Positions 8,544 to 51,879 are shown, counted from the stretch's first letter. The stretch: 64,000 bases of DNA from Candidatus Magasanikbacteria bacterium RIFOXYC2_FULL_42_28 (GCA_001784435.1 MFQZ01000010.1:169960-233959); one strand, 5' to 3'. Notes: generated by a model not told the origin, from the sequence alone. Translations and numbers: made by a program.

Positions 8544-9722
8544 ATGTCGGCATTTTATTTTTTACAATCATCTAGTCCGGAGACGTGGAAACAACGCGTC
8601 GATTTGTTGATAAGAATTGGGATGATAGCCGACGATTTATTTTTGGGGAAATGGGAGAATGATTCTGTCTGGGGCTGGTCAAAATTTTTAGTAGCTGATT
8701 TGGCAAAATTTAATAAAGAAAAGATTCCGTCTGATTGGCGGTATCAGTCGTTTTTTTACGCGTTGGTTGGTTTTTTGGATTTTTCTCTACTTGAAAAAAT
8801 TACCAATGAGTTGGATAAGTTGGCGCGTATTAAAATTGGCCCGGCATCAAAGGGGGCGACAATCATTAGTACTGTTTCTGAAGAATGGAACGCTTTGGGT
8901 GATTTTTTGGATTTGACACCAGCTGGCGGGGGTATTTTGAGGAACAAAGTAAGCGGATTAACGGCCGTTGAATTAGAAAAATTAACAGCCGATATGCGTG
9001 TGTTAGCGGATGATTATAATGATTTTCGCATTGTTTTTAAATTTGTGGCGACCGCGTTGCTTTATCATATTCCGCCCGTGCCGGCAGTTGATTTGGATGG
9101 TTTTAAATATGCTGTGTCGGTTCAAGCCGAACAGAAAAAAAATGATTTTAGTATTGATCACGGATTGCTTTGCACTAATTTTTTAGGGTGGTCGTTTTTA
9201 AAGCGGGATGAAAAAGTGATGCGTTGGGCCGCGGAATATCTGCGACAGTTTTCCGTCGAATCGATTAAATATGATAGTCCGTTTGATTTGATTTTTTTAA
9301 TTGGTATTTTACATTTAGCTTTTTATAATTTTACCGGATTATCATCTGAAACACAGATTGAGCTGATTAAAAAATTTACTCTGAAAGCGCTCTGTTGGGG
9401 GGTGCCGCTAGACAAAGTGTTGTTATCCAAGTCGGGCGAAGGATTGTCTGTCGCCACCGGCCCAAAAAATACGAGAGCGCTGTTTACTGCTTTAGAAAAT
9501 AGTGAGGAGACAATGAATTTTGGTTCTGATAAAGTTTTAATGAATGTTGGGCAATTTGTTAAGCAATTTTTATTGTCGGCTCATCGTGATTATGGGGGAT
9601 ACGCGCAGACCGAATATGTTGGAGACGCGATCAGAGAAAATCATTGGCCAGATGGCGCGCGTGTTTATTTATTCGCACTTTTAAAATGTTGTTTATATTT
9701 AAAAGCCGGCAGTTCCGCTTGA
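8544..9722 (+). CDS. hypothetical soluble protein, paralog of the 7086 gene
   Basis: See the previous feature; 4-nt intergenic gap. Confidence 0.5.
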   Translation: MSAFYFLQSSSPETWKQRVDLLIRIGMIADDLFLGKWENDSVWGWSKFLVADLAKFNKEKIPSDWRYQSFFYALVGFLDFSLLEKITNELDKLARIKIGPASKGATIISTVSEEWNALGDFLDLTPAGGGILRNKVSGLTAVELEKLTADMRVLADDYNDFRIVFKFVATALLYHIPPVPAVDLDGFKYAVSVQAEQKKNDFSIDHGLLCTNFLGWSFLKRDEKVMRWAAEYLRQFSVESIKYDSPFDLIFLIGILHLAFYNFTGLSSETQIELIKKFTLKALCWGVPLDKVLLSKSGEGLSVATGPKNTRALFTALENSEETMNFGSDKVLMNVGQFVKQFLLSAHRDYGGYAQTEYVGDAIRENHWPDGARVYLFALLKCCLYLKAGSSA

Positions 9723-9806
9723 AGTCAATTGGTGTTGTATCGCTTTAAAATATGGTAAACAGCAATTAGTCCGCTATTTTATTAAAAAAATCCACCCGCA
9801 CCATTT

Positions 9807-9899
9807 AAAACCTTTTAAGCATCCTTAAAAGGTTTTGTAAAAATAGGGTATGGCAGACGCGATTAGATACTTGACAGCGATGTGGTTAAATGTTACAAT
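9807..9899 (+). promoter_or_regulatory. copy 1 of palindrome+promoter element: aaaaccttttaag-catc-cttaaaaggtttt inverted repeat followed by TTGACA-N17-TACAAT
   Basis: Inverted repeat at 9807-9838; -35 TTGACA at 9871-9876 and -10 TACAAT at 9894-9899, read directly. Related copies at 11341 and 13074. Confidence 0.5.
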
Positions 9900-9932
9900 A
9901 ATAGGTATATATATACTTATAAATGTAAACTT

Positions 9933-11330
9933 ATGGAAATCTCGCTTATTTTAGAGGAAATTACTCGACAGAATAAGTTCTGGGCGCGAGAAAAACAGCG
10001 TGATTTTTTTGGTAATAATACGTTTAAACGTGAATTGTACCCACGGCTTGTCGCTTTACTGACCGATCGGCTAATTATTTCGATCGTTGGATTGCGACGT
10101 GTTGGTAAAACAGTTTTACTCAAACAATTAATTGGGCATTTGATAGATAATGACAAAGTTGAACCGCGCAATATTTTATTTTTAAGTTTTGATGAAGCGA
10201 TGCTGAGTTCGGCTGTCAAACTCGACGATTACTTGCGGATTTATTTAAGCCATTTTCAGGCGCGACGCACCGGGCGTTTGTATATTTTTTTAGATGAAAT
10301 TCAATATGCGCCCGAGTGGCAACATATTTTAAAACGATTTTATGACACCGAACCGAATATTAAATTTATTATTTCCGGTTCGTCCTCGCTTTTTTTAAAA
10401 AAGAAAGCGACCGAAAGTTTAGTTGGTCGGATTTATGAATTTAATTTACCGGTATTAAGCTTTGTGGAATATTTGGAATTGGCCCAAGTTTTTTCCGCCA
10501 ACTTGTCAATTTTTAAATCTTTGCTATGTGATATCAAGGCGGGATCGAAAGATTGGTTGAAATTAGACGTCGCCAGAAAGATTTTTTTGTCCGAGCATTC
10601 ACTTTGGTTGGCCGGACAATTTGATGAATATTTACTACGTGGACAATTTCCCGAAGTGGTAGGCGAAAAAGATATTGTTAAAATTGAAAGATATTTACGT
10701 GAATCAGTTTATAAAAAAACCATTGAATTTGATATCCCACGGTTATTTGGCGCTGATAAGGTTGGTGATTTAAAATTTATTTTTCAAGTCCTGGTTAACG
10801 AAACAGGTAATCAGTTTGAAGTTGGCAATCTGGCCCAAGAGGCGCAGATCGATCAAAAAACTCTTACTCGCTATTTATCTTTTTTTGAAGAAAGTTTGTT
10901 GGCGCGGATTTTATATAACTATTCGCGCTCATTGCGTAAAACCCATCGCCAGCCCAAGAAGATTTATATTAGTAGTACTAATTTTTATCCGTTGGACTTG
11001 GCTACGCCGCTTGAAACCCGCGGTGCAATTTTGGGGCATTTAGCTGAAACGCATGCCTGCAATTTATTGCGAGCGCGTTTTGATAATTTATCATTTTATC
11101 GTGTGCGGAAACAGGAAGTTGATTTTATTGGAGCGGACAACTGGTTGGATCGGTCATCCTATCGCTTAATTGAAGTAAAATATCGGTCTGATGTCAGTCG
11201 ACAAAGGTTTGTGTTTTTGGAAAATACCGCTAAGCGTTTTGGTGTTGGTCGGTTGCCGGTGGTTTTAACAAAATATGAATTTGGCGTTTCAGAAAAATTA
11301 GCGTTGGTGCCGTTATTTATGATAAAGTAA
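9933..11330 (+). CDS. AAA+ ATPase of the COG1373/DUF4143 type (Walker A GLRRVGKT, Walker B IFLDEIQ)
   Basis: Motifs visible in the translation. Start moved from the track's 9882 to the ATG at 9933 (MEISLILEE) because the promoter -10 ends at 9899. Confidence 0.6.
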   Translation: MEISLILEEITRQNKFWAREKQRDFFGNNTFKRELYPRLVALLTDRLIISIVGLRRVGKTVLLKQLIGHLIDNDKVEPRNILFLSFDEAMLSSAVKLDDYLRIYLSHFQARRTGRLYIFLDEIQYAPEWQHILKRFYDTEPNIKFIISGSSSLFLKKKATESLVGRIYEFNLPVLSFVEYLELAQVFSANLSIFKSLLCDIKAGSKDWLKLDVARKIFLSEHSLWLAGQFDEYLLRGQFPEVVGEKDIVKIERYLRESVYKKTIEFDIPRLFGADKVGDLKFIFQVLVNETGNQFEVGNLAQEAQIDQKTLTRYLSFFEESLLARILYNYSRSLRKTHRQPKKIYISSTNFYPLDLATPLETRGAILGHLAETHACNLLRARFDNLSFYRVRKQEVDFIGADNWLDRSSYRLIEVKYRSDVSRQRFVFLENTAKRFGVGRLPVVLTKYEFGVSEKLALVPLFMIK

Positions 11331-11340
11331 TACTAAGTGT

Positions 11341-11451
11341 TTTTAAGTACATTTAAAAGGTTTTGAAAAAATAGGGGAGTTTTTGGGCATAAAGAGTTAT
11401 CCACAGAGGTAGTTTGACATTTTTAACTGTTTTAAGTATACTTAAAACATA
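11341..11451 (+). promoter_or_regulatory. copy 2 of palindrome+promoter element (degenerate palindrome, TTATCCACAG box, TTGACA-N17-TATACT, palindromic ttttaagtatacttaaaa over the -10)
   Basis: TTATCCACAG at 11397-11406, -35 at 11414-11419, -10 at 11437-11442. The perfect palindrome ttttaagtatacttaaaa at 11431-11448 is a candidate operator. Confidence 0.5.
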
Positions 11452-11477
11452 GCATAAAAATATGAAATGTTTTAAGT

Positions 11478-12692
11478 ATGTTTAAAGAATATATCAAAAG
11501 AGAGGTTTATGTTAATAAAATTCGTCCTTTTATCGGCAAGGATATTATTAAGGTTTTAGTTGGCCATAGACGGGTCGGTAAGAGTTATTTGTTGTATCAG
11601 ATAATGGATGAAGTCAAAAACCAAGATTCAAAAATAGAGATTGTGTATATTAATAAGGAGTTAAATGATTTTGCCGATATTGTTGATCATCAGAGCTTGC
11701 TTAAATATATTGATTTAAAAAAAAATAAAAATAGTGGCGGAAAAACCGCGCTATTTATCGACGAAGTGCAGGACATTATTAATTTTGAAAAGGCCCTGCG
11801 TCACCTAAACGCCTCCGGGCAGTTTGATATTTATTGTACAGGCAGTAATGCTAAATTGTTATCAGGCGAGTTGGCGACTTTTTTGTCCGGTCGGTATATA
11901 GAAGTTGAAGTGCGCGGTTTGTCGTACAATGAATTCTTGGAATTTCATAAATTGGCAAAAGGTAAAGAATCTCTATTTCGTTATATTAAATATGGCGGTT
12001 TACCATATTTAATTAATTTACCACCGGAAGACGATGCCGTGTATGATTATTTGCGCAACATTTATAACACTATCGTTTTAAAAGATGTGGTCGAGCGTTT
12101 TAGATTAAGGAATGTAAATTTGCTGGAAAGATTGATTGAATATCTTGCGGATAATGTTGGTAGTTTGGTTTCAGCCAATAATATCAGTGATTTTTTAAAA
12201 TCGCAAAAAATTAAAATTTCACCGAATACCATTTTAAATTATCTGTCATATTTGGCGGCGAGTTATTTTATTTATAAAGTTCCGCGGCTAGATATTGTGG
12301 GAAAGAAAATTTTTGAGGTTAATGATAAATTTTATTTTGAGGATTTAGGATTAAGGCATGTGGTGGTTAATTACAAACAATCGGATATTAATAAAATTTT
12401 AGAAAATTTAGTGTTTTCGCATTTGAAATATATTGGTTATGAGGTTAAGGTCGGCCAATTGGGCCAGCAGGAAATTGATTTTGTAGCAAGCCGGGGTGAG
12501 GCGCGGGTTTATGTGCAAGTGGCTTACTTGCTAAATAGCGAGGCGGTCAAGCAACGAGAGTTTGGCAATTTATTAAAAATTGATGATAATTATAAAAAAA
12601 TAGTGGTGAGTATGGATGATTTTGGCGGGGGGAATGTTAGCGGTATCGAGCAGTGGAATGTCGTAGATTTTTTATGTGATTTTCTCGGGTAG
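11478..12692 (+). CDS. second AAA+ ATPase of the COG1373/DUF4143 type (Walker A GHRRVGKS, Walker B LFIDEVQ)
   Basis: Motifs in the translation; paralogous architecture to the 9933 gene. Confidence 0.6.
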   Translation: MFKEYIKREVYVNKIRPFIGKDIIKVLVGHRRVGKSYLLYQIMDEVKNQDSKIEIVYINKELNDFADIVDHQSLLKYIDLKKNKNSGGKTALFIDEVQDIINFEKALRHLNASGQFDIYCTGSNAKLLSGELATFLSGRYIEVEVRGLSYNEFLEFHKLAKGKESLFRYIKYGGLPYLINLPPEDDAVYDYLRNIYNTIVLKDVVERFRLRNVNLLERLIEYLADNVGSLVSANNISDFLKSQKIKISPNTILNYLSYLAASYFIYKVPRLDIVGKKIFEVNDKFYFEDLGLRHVVVNYKQSDINKILENLVFSHLKYIGYEVKVGQLGQQEIDFVASRGEARVYVQVAYLLNSEAVKQREFGNLLKIDDNYKKIVVSMDDFGGGNVSGIEQWNVVDFLCDFLG

Positions 12693-12716
12693 AATTAAAA
12701 TAATTATGAATTTATT

Positions 12717-12962
12717 ATGAAAACTATAATAGAAATAGACCGAAAGCAAGATGAAGTAATCCGCCTTCACTTATCCAATGACGACTATGATGATTTTGGC
12801 TGGATAGACATGTGGACGACCAAAGAAAAAGAGGGGGATGAGCCGGAGCAGAGTGAAACCGTGAATTTTTTCATTGACGATTTACGCGCGGCTCTAGAAG
12901 GATTTGTGGCGCAAAGAGAGTTGCAACATAAGCGAGATCAGATGTTGAAAGAAAATGAGTAG
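12717..12962 (+). CDS. small acidic hypothetical protein (81 aa)
   Basis: ORF only; no motif recognised. Confidence 0.35.
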   Translation: MKTIIEIDRKQDEVIRLHLSNDDYDDFGWIDMWTTKEKEGDEPEQSETVNFFIDDLRAALEGFVAQRELQHKRDQMLKENE

Positions 12963-12989
12963 ACAAGTTGATAATTTTGAGATTTAATT

Positions 12990-13075
12990 TTTGGCAATAC
13001 TGTGCTATAATATATCCATGACCAATAATGCTTCACCGACAATTTTAGTCAAAAAATCCGACGGCACGTTCACAA
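12990..13075 (+). repeat. about 85-bp duplicate of the promoter and first ~20 codons of the gene at 14619 (copy at 14610-14695)
   Basis: gctataatatatccatgaccaataatgcttcaccgacaattttagtcaaaaaatccgacggcac versus ggtataatatacctatggacaataataccaaacaaccaacaattttagtcaaaaaatccgacggcac, read directly. The upstream copy runs into the palindromic element and a stop. Confidence 0.75.
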
Positions 13076-13178
13076 AACCTTTTAAGCACCCTTAAAAGGT
13101 TTTGTAAAAATAGGGGAAATTTTAAGTATAAAGTTATCCACAGCACCGTTTGACTTATCAGTGTTATTTTGGTAAATT
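13074..13178 (+). promoter_or_regulatory. copy 3 of palindrome+promoter element (perfect aaaaccttttaag-cacc-cttaaaaggtttt, TTATCCACAG, TTGACT-N17-TAAATT)
   Basis: Palindrome at 13074-13105; TTATCCACAG at 13134-13143; -35 at 13150-13155. Confidence 0.5.
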
Positions 13179-13197
13179 AGCACAATATACTAATTTT

Positions 13198-13782
13198 ATG
13201 AAATGGATTGATTTTGAGAAAAGTATTAAAGATAAAGATATTAAGTTATTTACACCGCGCGATGTAAGTGTTTTTTTGGGTCGCTCAACAATTGCTGTGC
13301 GATTTTTAATGCATCGCCTAAAACAAAACGGACAAATTATGGGGGTTAAGCGCGGTCTTTATAAATTATCCGGTCAACTCGTACCTGATTATTATTTGGC
13401 TAATAGAATTTACGCTCCCTCCTATATTTCTTTAGAATCGGCGTTGTCATATTATGGTGTTATTCCGGAAACCGTATATGAAATTACGTCAGTAACTTCT
13501 AAAATTACTCGTCGTTTTGAAACCGCCGGAAAAATTTTTTCTTATCATAAAATTAAACAATCTGCTTTTACCGGTTATGGTATAGCGCACCAAGACGGAG
13601 CAAATTTTTATTTGGCTGACGCGGAAAAAGCGTTTATAGATGTGTGTTATCTGCGGTTATTGGCGGGCCGAGAGTCGATATCTCGTTTTGACAAAACAAA
13701 GCTTAATAAGGAGAAAACTTTAAGTTATGCTGATTTGTATAAAAATAAAAAATTAGTTGCGACTATTCGTAAATTATTATGA
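13198..13782 (+). CDS. abiEi: AbiEi-like antitoxin/transcriptional regulator (type IV TA, COG5340-like)
   Basis: About 195 aa with an N-terminal wHTH-like region and SLESALSYYGVI segment. It overlaps the downstream AbiEii-like gene by 4 nt. Start taken at 13198, downstream of the promoter; the track gives TTG at 13150. Confidence 0.5.
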   Translation: MKWIDFEKSIKDKDIKLFTPRDVSVFLGRSTIAVRFLMHRLKQNGQIMGVKRGLYKLSGQLVPDYYLANRIYAPSYISLESALSYYGVIPETVYEITSVTSKITRRFETAGKIFSYHKIKQSAFTGYGIAHQDGANFYLADAEKAFIDVCYLRLLAGRESISRFDKTKLNKEKTLSYADLYKNKKLVATIRKLL

Positions 13783-14540
13783 TTACCAAAGATTATATTG
13801 AGAAATTAGCAAAGCTTGGCCATGTTGCAACATTTCCAAATATCGCGAGAGAGTATTTTCAGCATGTTTTTTTGTCAAATTTAAGTCAGATTCCTGGTGG
13901 GGAAAAGTTATTGTTTAAGGGTGGTACGGCCTTGCGAATAGTTTATGGTAGTCCGCGTTTTTCCGAAGATTTAGACTTTTCTTTGTTCGGCGTCTCGCAC
14001 TCGCTCGTTAATAAATTTGTGGAAGATATTTTTCTGAAGATTTTATCTGAAATTGAAAGGACTGGGATTAAGGTTGAATTGGGTAAAAAAAGCGGAGAAA
14101 CAAGCGGCGGATATTTTGGTGTGGCATCGTTTCGGTTCTATGATTATCCTTTGATTGGCGTTGAGATCAATGTATCCGCGCGAGGAACCAAGCAGTTGGC
14201 CGGGGAAGCAGATAGTATCGTTAGCGATTTTGCGCCGGCGTATTCGTTATTGCATTTACCGCAAATTGTTTTGGTTGAAGAAAAAATATTTGGCGCTTTA
14301 CTGGAACGCAAAAAACCACGTGATTTTTATGATTTGTATTTTATTATGCGCAAAGGAATGCTAACGAATGAGCAGAAACAGCGATTATCAACGGTCAAAA
14401 ATAAAATAATCGCGAGTGCCAAGAAGATCGATTTTCGATATGAACTCGGTGTTTTTTTACCTTCTGACCAGCAATTGATTGTACGGGATTTTTCAGCAGT
14501 TTTAGAGCGGGAGTTAAATAGACAATTAGCAAAAATCTGA
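13779..14540 (+). CDS. abiEii: AbiEii-like nucleotidyltransferase toxin (DUF1814 family)
   Basis: N-terminal LLFKGGTALRIVYGSPRFSEDLDFS matches the family's conserved GGTAL / RFSEDxDF signature as I recall it. Size about 250 aa; operon overlap with the upstream antitoxin. Confidence 0.65.
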   Translation: MITKDYIEKLAKLGHVATFPNIAREYFQHVFLSNLSQIPGGEKLLFKGGTALRIVYGSPRFSEDLDFSLFGVSHSLVNKFVEDIFLKILSEIERTGIKVELGKKSGETSGGYFGVASFRFYDYPLIGVEINVSARGTKQLAGEADSIVSDFAPAYSLLHLPQIVLVEEKIFGALLERKKPRDFYDLYFIMRKGMLTNEQKQRLSTVKNKIIASAKKIDFRYELGVFLPSDQQLIVRDFSAVLERELNRQLAKI

Positions 14541-14618
14541 TGATTTTATAATTTTTGCAATTAAGTAAAATAATATTCGCACCGGCACCAAATATTTGAT
14601 TAGGTAATTGCGTCTATT

Positions 14619-15665
14619 TTGTGGTATAATATACCTATGGACAATAATACCAAACAACCAACAATTTTAGTCAAAAAATCCGACGGCACCTTCGCGCGGA
14701 TGTCTTTGGGGGAGATAAAAAAGATGAAAGTGGGTAAAATTACAGCACCGTCGTCTGTCATCCTGAATGAAATGAAGGATCCCTTGAAGTTGGCAGTAAG
14801 GGATTCTTCGGTCGCTACGCTTCCTCAGAATGACAATAACAAAAAAGTCGGAATGACAGGTAAAGACGCCAAGTCGCTTTTAGAAGAAGACAAATTGGTA
14901 GCCCCGGGCACGAGCGTTGCCGTTGGCCGAAATAATCAGGTGGACACGGTAATTAAAAAACTATCATTTTCCGTCGCGTCTAATTTTTTCAATCGTTTGC
15001 GGAGCGCGATTCAGTTGCGTTTAAAAGATGTACGCGGGGAAAAAGAAACACGCGCCACGGTGTTGCGTTCTATAAAAGACGGGGGACTGGGCTTGACTGA
15101 AACCCAAGCCAACGAATTGGAGCAAGTGTGCGCGACGGTGGGTAATTTATTGGCGCGACCACCGGCTAAAAGTAAAACTGATTTAATGGTTGAAGATCAA
15201 ATTTTACCGCAAACGTTTCACAAAATGCCTGTGCCGGCGAAAATGGCTCCACATAACGCGTTTGTGCATGAGGAATTTTTAAAAAAAGAAGAAAAATTTA
15301 AAATTAGTCCAGTGGCTGTTAGCCGACCGGCGATGAAGGATGTGGTTGCCGCCGCCGCGCCGGTCGGGCCGGTGGAGGAAATTAAATTTTTTACCCTAAC
15401 TGATTTTCGGCGTTTGGCCCAAGACCCTAACCAAGCCACCAAACGTTTGGCGCAAAAATTTATTAATTTGCGTGAAGAATCAGTTTTGTTATTTTGGCAG
15501 GCCTTGGATGCCTGGAAGCAAAGCCCGTTATTTGCCGACTATGTTGGTGTATTAAATCGAGTTTTTATCGGTAAAGTCGCGTCTGATCAGCAAAAAACGA
15601 GTGACCAGATAACCGATGTTGAGATAAAGGCGCTTATCGCGATGGAAAAAGATTTGGTAATCTGA
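14619..15665 (+). CDS. hypothetical protein (348 aa); its promoter and 5' end are duplicated upstream of the AbiE cassette
   Basis: ORF only; no motif recognised. Confidence 0.4.
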   Translation: MWYNIPMDNNTKQPTILVKKSDGTFARMSLGEIKKMKVGKITAPSSVILNEMKDPLKLAVRDSSVATLPQNDNNKKVGMTGKDAKSLLEEDKLVAPGTSVAVGRNNQVDTVIKKLSFSVASNFFNRLRSAIQLRLKDVRGEKETRATVLRSIKDGGLGLTETQANELEQVCATVGNLLARPPAKSKTDLMVEDQILPQTFHKMPVPAKMAPHNAFVHEEFLKKEEKFKISPVAVSRPAMKDVVAAAAPVGPVEEIKFFTLTDFRRLAQDPNQATKRLAQKFINLREESVLLFWQALDAWKQSPLFADYVGVLNRVFIGKVASDQQKTSDQITDVEIKALIAMEKDLVI

Positions 15666-20145: not shown

Positions 20146-20186
20146 AATAATAACCCACAAGTGTGGGTTATTATTATTTTTGGATA
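20146..20186. terminator. bidirectional rho-independent terminator (aataacccacaagtgtgggttatt with flanking A/T runs)
   Basis: Perfect stem cccacaagtgtggg, with T-runs on both strands. Sits between convergent tRNA-Ser and the minus-strand beta-helix gene. Confidence 0.7.
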
Positions 20187-48337: not shown

Positions 48338-48347
48338 TTATCCACAG
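48338..48347 (+). promoter_or_regulatory. TTATCCACAG box upstream of the RM gene
   Basis: One of four identical 10-mers (11397, 13134, 48338, 51469), all upstream of plus-strand genes. Confidence 0.3.
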
Positions 48348-48370
48348 GTGGTAAAATTTCAAAAAAACAG

Positions 48371-51300
48371 ATGAATTATATTAAAATTATGAAAAATGAT
48401 TTGGTAAATGAATACATAAAATCAATCACCGAAAAATATCAGTCCGGCCAAGCCAAAGAACATGCCTATCGTCCGGCATTACAAAAATTGTTTACCGACA
48501 TTACCGGTCTGAATGTCATCAACGATCCCAAACGAAGCGAATACGGCGCGCCGGATTTTTTGTTTATGAAAGGAAAAGTCGCCGCCGCTTACGCCGAAGC
48601 CAAAGATATTGGCGTATCGCTTGACGAAACCGAAAAAGGCGAACAACTTGCTCGCTATTTTGGCTATTCCAATTTAATTTTAACCGACTGTTTAGAGTTT
48701 AGATTTTTTCGTAATGGGCAAAAATATGAGGCGGTAAAAATTGCCGAAATTAAAAATGGCGAAATAGTCGCTGACGAAAACAATTTCGCGCATTTGGAAG
48801 ATACCATAAAAGAATTTATCAATGAAGCCAAAGAGCCGATAAAATCCGGTGCGGTGCTCGCTAAAGTGATGGCTGGCAAAGCGCGTCGTATTCGCGATAA
48901 TATCAAGAAATTTTTACATGACGGGGACACGCAAACCAATGAGAGTTTGTTGTCGGTGTATAATGTGATAAAAAAATTGTTGCTGGCCGATTTGGATTAT
49001 GACAAATTTGCCGATATGTACGCGCAAACAGTCGTGTATGGATTATTCGCGGCGCGTTATCATGATGAAACGCCCGACACTTTTTCCCGCCAAGAAGCGC
49101 GCGATTTGGTGCCGGTTTCAAATCCATTTTTGAGGCACTTTTTTGACCATGTGGCCGGACCGTCTTTTGACAAGCGCATTGAGTTTATTGTCAACGAACT
49201 TTGTGAGGAATTTGTCCACGCCGATGTGCAGGCGATTGTTCATGATTATTACAAAGTGGAAAAAGACGATAGCCGTGATCCGATTATTCATTTTTATGAA
49301 GATTTTTTGCAAGAATATGATTCGGCGGAACGCAAAAAGATGGGCGTATTTTATACTCCCTTACCGGTAGTGCGTTTTATCGTGCGCGCGTTAGATGATG
49401 TTCTCAAAAAAGAGTTTGGTTTAAATGGTCTGGCGGATTCTGCTAAAATTGAAATTAATAGTGTGAGCCAAGGCAAAAAGTTTAAACAGAGCGTTCACAA
49501 AGTTCAAATTTTGGATCCGGCCACCGGCACCGGAACATTTTTGAATGAAGTTATTTCGCATATTAAAAAATCTTTTGACGGCCAAGAAGGCCGTTGGGCG
49601 AATTACGCGCGCGAAGAATTATTGCCGCGTTTGCACGGGTTTGAAATTATGATGGCGTCATACACGATTGCCCATCTTAAACTGACGACTACGCTTAAAG
49701 AAAGTGGCGTAGATATTAACAGGGGGCGACTCGGAGTATATCTTACCAATAGTTTGGAAAAAGCTGAAAGCTACGATGATACTTTATTCGCAGGTTTAGG
49801 TTTGGGGCAGGCGATTACCGATGAGTCCATCGCGGCGAATAAAGTAAAAAATGATTTGCCAATTATGGTGGTGTTAGGGAACCCGCCGTATAATGTTAGT
49901 TCGCAAAATAAAGGCGAGTGGATTGGCGAGCTGATAAAAGATTATAAAAAAGATTTAAATGAGAGAAATATTCAACCTCTGTCGGATGATTATATTAAAT
50001 TTATTCGTTTTTCACAGTATCTGATAGATAAAAATGGCGAGGGAGTTATCGGGATGATAACCAACAATTCGTATATAGACGGCATTACCCACCGGCAAAT
50101 GCGCAAGTCGCTGTTAGAATCGTTTGACAGTATTTATATCTTGGATTTACATGGTAATGCCAAGAAAAAAGAAGTCGCGCCGGATGGTAGCGCCGATCAA
50201 AATGTATTTAGTATTATGCAAGGCGTATCCATCGCAATTTTTGTGAAAAAATCCGCCAAGAAAAAAACGCTCGGTGTGGTTTATCACGCCGAAATGTTTG
50301 GTAAACAAAAAAATAAATATGAAGCGTTAGATAATTCTGATTTTGAGAAAATGAAGTGGAACAAGATTAAGTATGAAGCGCCGTATTATTTCTTTGTGCC
50401 CAAGGATTTTGGGGCGAGCGAAGAATATGAAAGCGGATTTAAGTTAGACGATTTCTTTAGTATAAAGGCAGCGGGAATTAAAACTCATCACGATGATATT
50501 GTGATTGCATTTTCTGAAGATAATCTTAAAAAACAGATTTTGAATTATTGTGATAGCTCTAATTTCATATTTGATGTTGAAAAAATTAAAAAAATTTGTT
50601 ATAGGCCATTCGACGAGAGATTTTTGTATTATGACACAAAGATTGTCGTAAGACATAGAAAGGAGCAAATGAAACACTCTTTTTATTCTAATTTATCTCT
50701 TTTGGCTGGTAGGCAATCAAAATCAGATCAAATAAGTCATTTTTTTATTACCAATTTATTGTCTGAAATGAAAACAGCGGAAAGTACTACTGGATCTTAT
50801 CATTTTCCACTTTATCTCTACGCTGACGACGGCACCAAAATCCCAAATCTTAAAAAAGAAATCGTCCAAGAAATAGAGAAAATTACCGGCCCGATAACGC
50901 CAGAAAATATTTTGGATTATATTTACGCGGTTTTACACAGTCCTAATTATCGCGAAAAATATAAGGAGTTTTTAAAAATAGATTTTCCGCGCGTGCCGTA
51001 TCCAAAAGACAAAAATCAATTTTTTGCGTTAGCTAAGTTAGGCGAAGAATTACGCTATCTGCATCTGTTAGAAAGTCCAAAAGTAAATAGTTTTATTACC
51101 ACTTATCCGGTGGTGGGGGACAATATGGTAGAAAAAATTATTTACGAAAACGAAAAAGTATTTATCAATAAAACCCAATACTTTGGCGGTGTGCCCAAAT
51201 TGGCCTGGGATTTTTACATAGGTGGCTATCAGCCAGCTCAAAAATGGCTCAAAGACCGCAAAGGCCGAAAACTTACCAATGCTGATATAGAGCATTATCA

Positions 51301-51373
51301 AAAAATTATTGTGGTGTTGGTGGAAACGGGGCGGATCATGGGAGAGATTGATGGCGTGGGATTGATATTTTAA
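48371..51373 (+). CDS. single-chain Type IIL/IIG restriction-modification enzyme, MmeI-like (N-terminal PD-ExK nuclease plus gamma-class N6-adenine methyltransferase plus TRD)
   Basis: N-terminal D...EAK nuclease motif (PDFLF...AEAKD), methyltransferase motif I ILDPATGTGTFL and motif IV NPPY (VVLGNPPYN). 1000 aa. Confidence 0.6.
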   Translation: MNYIKIMKNDLVNEYIKSITEKYQSGQAKEHAYRPALQKLFTDITGLNVINDPKRSEYGAPDFLFMKGKVAAAYAEAKDIGVSLDETEKGEQLARYFGYSNLILTDCLEFRFFRNGQKYEAVKIAEIKNGEIVADENNFAHLEDTIKEFINEAKEPIKSGAVLAKVMAGKARRIRDNIKKFLHDGDTQTNESLLSVYNVIKKLLLADLDYDKFADMYAQTVVYGLFAARYHDETPDTFSRQEARDLVPVSNPFLRHFFDHVAGPSFDKRIEFIVNELCEEFVHADVQAIVHDYYKVEKDDSRDPIIHFYEDFLQEYDSAERKKMGVFYTPLPVVRFIVRALDDVLKKEFGLNGLADSAKIEINSVSQGKKFKQSVHKVQILDPATGTGTFLNEVISHIKKSFDGQEGRWANYAREELLPRLHGFEIMMASYTIAHLKLTTTLKESGVDINRGRLGVYLTNSLEKAESYDDTLFAGLGLGQAITDESIAANKVKNDLPIMVVLGNPPYNVSSQNKGEWIGELIKDYKKDLNERNIQPLSDDYIKFIRFSQYLIDKNGEGVIGMITNNSYIDGITHRQMRKSLLESFDSIYILDLHGNAKKKEVAPDGSADQNVFSIMQGVSIAIFVKKSAKKKTLGVVYHAEMFGKQKNKYEALDNSDFEKMKWNKIKYEAPYYFFVPKDFGASEEYESGFKLDDFFSIKAAGIKTHHDDIVIAFSEDNLKKQILNYCDSSNFIFDVEKIKKICYRPFDERFLYYDTKIVVRHRKEQMKHSFYSNLSLLAGRQSKSDQISHFFITNLLSEMKTAESTTGSYHFPLYLYADDGTKIPNLKKEIVQEIEKITGPITPENILDYIYAVLHSPNYREKYKEFLKIDFPRVPYPKDKNQFFALAKLGEELRYLHLLESPKVNSFITTYPVVGDNMVEKIIYENEKVFINKTQYFGGVPKLAWDFYIGGYQPAQKWLKDRKGRKLTNADIEHYQKIIVVLVETGRIMGEIDGVGLIF

Positions 51374-51468: not shown

Positions 51469-51478
51469 TTATCCACAG
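51469..51478 (+). promoter_or_regulatory. TTATCCACAG box upstream of hup
   Basis: See the 48338 feature. Confidence 0.3.
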
Positions 51479-51579
51479 GCCGATTTTATTAGGGATTTCC
51501 CTTATTTTCAAAAGAGTGTATACTATTACTGTGTATATCACAAGGTTTCATAACCTTTTTTATTCTTAACATTAAGTCT

Positions 51580-51861: not shown

Positions 51862-51879
51862 TTTTTCAGACAAAATAAA

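Follow-up and report, generated by a model that had tools for sequence, protein, structure and literature searches.

At fda in Streptococcus thermophilus, the integrative and conjugative element (ICE) ICESt1 and its recombinase-less derivatives, the cis-mobilizable elements (CIMEs), accrete in tandem at an attachment (att) site that lies in one end of a protein-coding gene. Here we describe a locus with several features of this system from the chromosome of an ultra-small bacterium from Rifle groundwater, Candidatus Magasanikbacteria bacterium RIFOXYC2_FULL_42_28 (Patescibacteria or candidate phyla radiation, CPR). The stretch of DNA that was analysed, hereafter the window, comprises 64 kb (MFQZ01000010.1:169960-233959). 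It contains two COG1373 ATPase genes, a small open reading frame (ORF) and an AbiEi/AbiEii gene pair, together with three copies of a palindrome-bearing element, all within the 5' end of the gene that opens an operon resembling a type IV secretion system (T4SS). These defence genes were probably put in at one spot of the secretion-operon gene start, in two steps. The explanation that we prefer, with a probability of roughly 0.62, is that recombinase-less cassettes accreted one after another at a single site in this first gene. Both the gene content (AbiE and the PADLOC defence candidate PDC-S01) and the palindrome are ordinary; what is new is a repeatedly used point of insertion that carries duplicated restart modules, and a literature search of incomplete coverage gave no description of such a site in CPR.

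The likeness to ICESt1 and its CIMEs concerns the direct repeats that carry the target gene end, the identical core in diverged flanks and the replacement gene end, as well as the stacking at one site of elements without an integrase of their own, the oldest remnant being the most decayed. In contrast to the streptococcal elements, the target is a 5' end inside an operon, so that a promoter and a start codon have to come with the cassettes as well; moreover, they are tiny (~1.6 and 3.3 kb), they reside in a CPR host, and no cognate integrase or ICE was identified. Integron cassettes are likewise small units close to a promoter, with one to three genes that are often of toxin-antitoxin (TA) or defence type; they are arrayed in one orientation at one site and mobilised in trans. 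Unlike them, the cassettes of the window show no attC consensus and no adjacent intI, they have their own promoter and terminator, and their insertion duplicates and restores part of the host gene. The cargo also resembles described systems: as in defence islands, both ATPases match hidden Markov models (HMMs) of PDC-S01 and adjoin AbiE, and as in AbiE type IV TA systems, the gene of an AbiEi-family regulator is overlapped by an AbiEii gene and there is an inverted repeat in the promoter.

Insertion at the start of the target gene

The target gene (14637-15665, plus strand) encodes a conserved patescibacterial protein of 342 amino acids (aa) with the N-terminal motif QPTILVKKxDGTF, and is the first gene of a PrgI / TraC-like / VirB4-like / ComFC-like module. 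An insert of ~4.9 kb (9752-14636) lies inside its 5' end, with a GC content of 31-39% in the inserted stretch versus 40-48% in the flanks. For comparison we used related genomes and other assemblies (loci L003-L043), among which five related lineages (L009, L012, L030, L031 and L032) have an empty site: the target homologue comes right after the giant-protein operon, with gaps of 2-97 nucleotides (nt) and no defence genes. The original prediction had located the genes between the giant-protein operon and the T4SS-like module, which is correct but understated, because the insert splits an operon that is contiguous in relatives; its view of an accessory or defence-type region gains support from the low GC content and from the absence of the region in the five lineages, and the region is indeed modular. 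The gene upstream of the insert (8544-9722; 392 aa) and the 494-aa gene that stands before the target in L009 are homologues (E = 3e-12). The former seems to be without the conserved ...FKWK-type end found in relatives and in the 484-aa paralogue of the window.

Two duplicates of the gene start accompany the intact one. The intact gene is headed by the right-end module of cassette B (14620-14693, plus strand), which consists of an extended -10 (TGTGGTATAAT), 6 nt, the ATG at 14637 and the first 19 codons of the target. A near-intact copy of the target promoter and these 19 codons (duplicate #2; 13001-13073, plus strand), with the extended -10 TGTGCTATAAT and an ATG at 13018, forms the right end of cassette A and at the same time the left junction of cassette B, and its reading frame ends at a stop codon (13093-13095) within the palindrome. 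The two stretches share an identical core of 28 nt, CAATTTTAGTCAAAAAATCCGACGGCAC (13040-13067 and 14662-14689), in diverged flanks, and their similarity stops exactly at copy 3 of the palindrome. At the left junction of cassette A (9807-13073) we find a pseudogenised 5' end of the target gene (remnant #1; 9752-9806, plus strand) that ends 1 nt before palindrome copy 1 and reads ATG GTA AAC AGC AAT TAG..., i.e. MVNSN*SAILLKKSTRTI with an in-frame stop. Global alignment of this remnant to the native 5' ends of relatives gives z = 5-6.5 (p < 0.001), its local match to the core covers 21 of 26 positions (p ~0.001), and its register to its palindrome equals that of copy 3.

The position is also occupied in another genome. 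In L027, which has a target protein with 39% identity to that of the window, the native gene start (206-256) directly follows the conserved end of the upstream gene (...FKWKD*) and is cut after KKADGT; next come a Bro-N-domain gene, TGTGGTATAATATA, 4 nt and a GTG that restarts the intact gene, with an identical core of 31 nt. The breakpoints of both genomes fall in one register, between GGCACGTTCAC and AAAACC in the window and between GGGACATATGT and CTGACC in L027. The window and L027 also share the promoter 14-mer that restarts the gene, TGTGSTATAATATA. In the closest relative, L008 (60% identity), a DUF4143 ATPase of a third type comes before this 14-mer and the gene start. Three different PDC-S01-type ATPase subfamilies are found at one hotspot in two genomes, and within the window and the compared loci the 14-mer is confined to the right ends of cassettes. 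Flanking direct repeats with an identical core, an empty site and the re-use of the position by unrelated cargo, the latter in two genomes only, are the marks of site-specific integration. Relatives show conservation of the target even in its nucleotide sequence, owing to the invariant N-terminal motif encoded there; all 120 homologues listed contain this motif, and the 342-aa protein has 160 matches at E <= 0.001. Scanning IMG/VR with the target core returned only unrelated phage proteins that hold LVKKADGT.

These features can be combined in a model in which the insertion point would lie just behind the codons for KKSDGTF and the newest cassette nearest to the gene. Each cassette would begin with a left edge of A-tract, stem, loop, stem and T-tract, which most likely stops transcription entering from the operon upstream or begun at the truncated gene start. 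The cargo would follow under its native promoter (ATPase 1, ATPase 2 and an 81-aa ORF in cassette A, abiEi-abiEii in cassette B), and the right end would be built of the extended -10 TGTGSTATAATATA, 6 nt, the start codon and the replacement for the first 19 codons. This last module would restart the interrupted gene and the genes downstream of it, probably via a leaderless mRNA, as is suggested by the distance of 6 nt between the -10 and the start codon in four of four cases. Since the cassette brings along a restart promoter and a replacement gene start, the operon would not be silenced. Cassettes would be joined by a site-specific recombinase provided in trans, with the crossover in or next to the core of 28-31 nt; an identical core combined with partial similarity past the joint is the usual signature of attL and attR, which favours such an enzyme. 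Cassette A may itself consist of two fused cassettes.

The repeated element and the cargo promoters

The core of the repeated element, TTAAAAGGTTTTGNAAAAATAGGG, occurs in three exact copies in the window, where none are expected, and all three lie in this locus. Copy 1 (9807-9848) is composed of the perfect palindrome AAAACCTTTTAAG-CATC-CTTAAAAGGTTTT (9807-9836) and GTAAAAATAGGG. In copy 2 (11341-11406) a degenerate left arm and an intact right arm (11341-11365) are followed by ATAGGGG and by TTATCCACAG at 11397-11406. Copy 3 (13074-13143) has a perfect palindrome again (13074-13103, the arms of which reach out to 13072-13105), then ATAGGGG and TTATCCACAG at 13134-13143. The earlier statement that each unit is preceded by a copy of the element therefore holds for the three copies as such but not for their supposed sameness: the perfect 13-N4-13 palindrome is restricted to copies 1 and 3, with only the right arm in copy 2, and the TTATCCACAG box to copies 2 and 3. 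Between copies 1 and 3 there is one mismatch in the 42 positions that extend from the palindrome to the end of ATAGGG, with divergence beyond, whereas copies 2 and 3 can be aligned up to the -35.

An exact search with the pattern TTAAAAGGTTTTGNAAAAATAGG in GTDB genomes (one per species), JGI metagenomes and IMG/VR gave only chance coding matches in unrelated organisms, the source genome apparently not being included in these collections. As the core is missing there, it does not qualify as a ubiquitous type of promoter or as a widespread repeat, and three copies at a single locus within the 64 kb do not make a dispersed repeat comparable to repetitive extragenic palindromes (REP) or miniature inverted-repeat transposable elements (MITE). 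The element is a leader of ~70 nt (palindrome, ATAGGG, spacer, TTATCCACAG) that is set before unrelated native promoters. On the accretion model, the element of 80-100 bp that had been proposed originally would be the left-edge module (terminator and spacer) of the cassettes of this genome, abutting three unrelated native promoters.

The promoters themselves had been correctly recognised as near-consensus sigma70 promoters, but they do not form one unit with the palindrome, because from the -35 on they are native to their own gene modules. In a scan over 8 kb, the ATPase-1 promoter (9871-9899, plus strand; TTGACA-17-TACAAT) and the ATPase-2 promoter (TTGACA-17-TATACT at 11414-11442; 11414-11487 with the 5' untranslated region, plus strand) were joint best, each with 11 of 12 consensus positions; the abiE promoter (13150-13197, plus strand; TTGACT-17-TAAATT at 13150-13178) has 9 of 12 and a TG extension. 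The -10 of ATPase 2 is overlain by the palindrome TGTTTTAAG-TATA-CTTAAAACA (11428-11449), and a third TTTTAAGTAT motif is found at the start codon, a combination that we regard as a candidate operator set. In other Patescibacteria (L038-L042), an ATPase-2 homologue with 63% identity has the same TTGACA-17-TATACT and shares nothing upstream of the -35; it also keeps TTTTA(A/T)G-TATA-CTTAAAA over the -10 and TTTAAGTATG at the start codon. Correspondingly, the abiE promoter holds the inverted repeat AAATTAG-N9-CTAATTT, and abiEi homologues of Jorgensenbacteria and Falkowbacteria (64-68% identity; L013, L019) share both this repeat and TTGAC(T/A)-17-TAAATT, with nothing in common upstream of the -35 and no palindrome. 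Conservation together with these genes in other phyla shows the ATPase-2 and abiE promoters to be native to their modules. An inverted repeat is expected in AbiE promoters from the autoregulation by AbiEi, and AAATTAG-N9-CTAATTT is likely to be the predicted AbiEi operator.

Between 11428 and 11487, three TGTTTTAAGTAT motifs (two direct, one inverted) surround the -10 and the start codon of ATPase 2, and as RNA this stretch forms a hairpin that includes the start codon (-20.7 kcal/mol, z = -5.8). The motifs are kept in the distant ATPase-2 homologue, which makes autoregulation possible. The TTATCCACAG box is a perfect match to the DnaA-box 9-mer TTATCCACA with an additional G and is a predicted DnaA site. 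It is found four times in the window (11397-11406, 13134-13143, 48338-48348 and 51469-51479), always on the plus strand and with 0.08 occurrences expected. At the ATPase-2 and abiE promoters it is located 6-7 nt upstream of the -35, and as TTATCCACAGG (48338-48348 and 51469-51479) it flanks a Type ISP/IIG restriction-methylase gene (48371-51373), so that three defence-type units carry an identical 10-mer mark. The related loci contain a single occurrence on the minus strand (L009), which is uninformative.

Function of the palindrome and joining of the cassettes

A census of every perfect palindrome in the window with arms of at least 9 nt provides a simple reading of the element. The palindromes at 20146, 41212, 41312 and 51877 are situated between convergent genes or beside tRNA genes and are built of A-tract, stem, a loop of 2-4 nt, stem and T-tract (e.g. 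AAAAATCTTCCGTA-GACG-TACGGAAGATTTTT at 51877), and the palindromes of the element are built alike. Folding energies range from -12.8 to -20.8 kcal/mol in these four and from -14 to -17 kcal/mol (z = -3.5 to -5) in the hairpins of the element. In build, loop size and energy the element matches these four terminator-like palindromes; it differs from bidirectional intrinsic terminators in its weaker stem (2 G-C pairs per arm) and in its short U tract. Judged from its sequence, the palindrome is most simply read as a weak bidirectional intrinsic terminator, the element alone being probably a terminator with a spacer, and copy 1 would insulate the left edge of cassette A in the manner of a terminator. 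Alternatively, although compatible with accretion of the cassettes, the palindrome could be an operator: a DNA-binding protein encoded by the cassettes (AbiEi, the winged-helix region of the COG1373 ATPases or the 81-aa protein) would read TTTTAAG-N4-CTTAAAA and co-regulate the three units. With at most one mismatch, this 18-bp sequence has four occurrences (0.1 would be expected); all of them are in this region, one over the ATPase-2 -10. The region also holds seven of the nine TTTTAAGYA motifs of the window, and the distant ATPase-2 homologue keeps the -10 palindrome and the start-codon motif. However, the large palindromes are situated 35-47 bp before the -35, where an operator is poorly placed to repress, and they show the A-tract and T-tract of terminators; the abiE promoter has its own conserved AAATTAG-N9-CTAATTT, and the common 7-mer could simply reflect AT-rich terminator stems. 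A shared operator of this kind appears unlikely to us. Binding of AbiEi to the large palindrome is unlikely in any case, because in other phyla the proximal inverted repeat is retained with abiEi homologues but the palindrome is not.

The joining of the cassettes can be explained in several ways. According to the original prediction, the shared element with palindrome and promoter is itself mobile or recombinogenic, and the cassettes shuffle between its copies. Three copies in direct orientation, one heading each unit, would agree with this, and gene conversion or a recent exchange could explain why copies 1 and 3 are so similar (one difference in 42 positions) despite the decay of remnant #1. 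Yet the copies are not uniform, as copy 2 has no left arm and copy 1 no TTATCCACAG, the promoters are native to each cargo, and the element is missing from the L027 cassette at the same site, from the scanned genome, metagenome and viral collections and from the remainder of the window. It is the duplicates of the target gene, not the element, that set the junctions; we found no direct support for recombination through it, and the duplicated promoter with the first 19 target codons would be the better substrate, which leaves shuffling between elements improbable. To regard the palindromes as attC sites of an integron-like array is hardly tenable. Small single-function cassettes, including a TA pair, that share one orientation and are separated by palindromes do recall such an array, but the palindrome is perfect, has no extrahelical bases and misfits the consensus R'' RYYYAAC / R' GTTRRRY, copy 2 is one-armed, and the cassettes have promoters of their own. 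The site consensus and the absence of an IntI-like gene from the window effectively refute an attC reading.

A serious rival dispenses with a dedicated recombinase altogether: by natural transformation, incoming DNA would have been anchored through homology at the gene start and closed by an illegitimate joint at microhomology, and the array would have grown by unequal crossing-over. CPR bacteria presumably rely on the uptake of DNA, the operon ends in a ComFC-like gene, the anchor sequence is highly conserved between species, and the window contains no integrase. Illegitimate joints would be expected to scatter, whereas the same nucleotide register is found in two genomes with unrelated cargo and twice in the window, and the identical core with partial similarity beyond the joint is typical of attL and attR. 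Transformation with one homologous and one illegitimate joint has to be taken seriously, even if we hold it to be the less plausible course of events.

The accretion of cassettes by a recombinase acting in trans, which we prefer, has to face several opposing observations. A scan of the window ORFs from 120 aa upwards found no recombinase gene, and the cassettes encode none. Only two independent types of junction, from the window and from L027, speak for site specificity, the contig of L008 ending short of its left junction, and the L027 cassette has no palindrome, which consequently is no general requirement. With its 2 G-C pairs per arm and a U tract of 4 nt, the palindrome is so weak in the stem and so short in the tract that a generic terminator scan misses it. 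No remnant of the target start was detected between ATPase 1 and copy 2 (p = 0.7-0.9), and the origin of cassette A from two cassettes is accordingly a conjecture. The 392-aa gene upstream is apparently short of ~115 C-terminal residues, so that the left boundary may carry an additional deletion. Finally, four other assemblies of the same strain do not show a single difference across the insertion region and provide no polymorphic variant.

A more far-reaching version of the preferred reading, which we put forward only tentatively and consider doubtful as a whole, is that of an undescribed cassette-capture system of Patescibacteria. It would combine a recombinase in trans with a site of ~30 nt that is conserved phylum-wide through the codons for PTILVKKxDGTF, and would maintain an integron-like 'defence bank' of small, self-contained cassettes in an essential host-interaction operon. 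Its cassettes would be harmless to the operon owing to a terminator on the entry side, a regulated promoter of their own, and an exit promoter with leaderless restart and replacement N-terminus.

Cargo genes and significance

Protein families were assigned by Pfam with its cut-offs, PADLOC HMMs and NCBIfam. The genes that had originally been named, i.e. two COG1373 ATPases, a small protein and an AbiEi/AbiEii pair, are confirmed. ATPase 1 (9933-11330, plus strand) and ATPase 2 (11478-12692, plus strand) both have AAA_14 and DUF4143 over the Pfam cut-offs and match PDC-S01 (1e-55 and 2e-144, respectively). Their identity of only 22% indicates two different subfamilies and no (recent) tandem duplication, and ATPase 2 is a member of a very large cross-phylum subfamily. 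DUF4143 is classed as PD-(D/E)XK (PMC3424549), and ATPase 1 keeps a nuclease-like motif, E-V-D...E-V-K, which is also read at this site in the L008 ATPase. At the corresponding site in the C-terminus of ATPase 2 (12470-12540) and of its homologues (P0241-P0360), 116 of the 120 matches listed read E[IV]DF...[IV]Q[VAT]AY, a pattern by which the canonical lysine of PD-(D/E)XK is replaced throughout the ATPase-2 subfamily. A PDB sequence search with ATPase 2 did not find a solved relative.

PDC-S01, an ATPase fused to a PD-(D/E)XK domain, is described as the fourth most common defence candidate (PMC12988326). It is a 'guilt-by-embedding' candidate of PADLOC whose anti-phage function is unvalidated (PMC12988326; bioRxiv 10.1101/2024.09.26.614923), and the single representative that has been assayed did not protect against T4, T5 or T7 (bioRxiv 10.1101/2024.09.26.614923). 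The proposal of an anti-phage role for the COG1373 ATPases thus stands insofar as they are defence candidates; it is not new, being already catalogued, and still awaits validation. A homologue of ATPase 2 with 63% identity is located between a tRNA gene and uvrA in L038-L043, and in several of these assemblies the adjacent uvrA is called as two to three fragments; the tRNA/uvrA locus may be another insertion context for PDC-S01 genes. The acidic 81-aa ORF (12717-12962, plus strand) has no family match in Pfam, PADLOC or NCBIfam. A role as conserved partner of the ATPase is not supported for it, as it is absent beside the ATPase-2 homologue in L038-L043.

The AbiE genes are a standard pair without unusual features, for which a TA role is predicted. 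AbiEi (13198-13782, plus strand), the antitoxin and transcriptional regulator, matches PADLOC AbiEi (3.9e-41); its match to NCBIfam TAA_AbiEi (1.5e-10, 41 bits) is below the cut-off of 150, which points to a divergent subfamily. It has more than 1100 homologues, most of them in Patescibacteria, where it is very common at 60-68% identity. AbiEii (13779-14540, plus strand), the nucleotidyltransferase toxin, matches PF08843 with 86.1 bits (cut-off 22.5) as well as 27 PADLOC AbiEii models, and the start of its gene overlaps the stop of abiEi by 4 nt. In Falkowbacteria-type contigs (L020-L026), an orphan abiEi with no abiEii called sits at a junction whose left-hand neighbours vary among the contigs, and ~80 nt upstream of it, a tandem pair of ~35-nt repeats (aataatttcacactgcggtctctgccgcag) replaces the usual promoter. 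Close relatives of the cassettes in other contexts were not found: the nearest homologues of ATPase 2 and AbiEi are at most 68% identical, so that cassette boundaries are not definable by comparison of copies.

Across 9600-14800, Rfam gave no known RNA family, either at gathering thresholds or at E <= 1. Two independent Logan assemblies (SRR2090171 and SRR3989339; L003 and L004) both stop at base 14825, 190 nt inside the target gene, and this shared end may reflect strain-level variation downstream. At the other end of the target gene, a GIY-YIG ORF of the homing-endonuclease type overlaps the 3' end of target homologues before prgI (L027, 2194-2571; L028, 1196-1573; L029, 1210-1626) and is a second kind of selfish insertion in the target operon.

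In CPR/Patescibacteria, with their tiny genomes and few recognisable integrases, mobile elements and the routes by which defence genes are gained are poorly known. A duplicated gene start together with the TGTGSTATAATATA restart promoter would be a concrete and searchable marker for a re-used insertion point, and this marker could be used to catalogue accessory cargo phylum-wide and to seek the recombinase responsible. The operon that serves as target is thought to mediate host interaction or DNA transfer, and the cassettes would represent a compact natural way of inserting DNA into an operon without polar effects.

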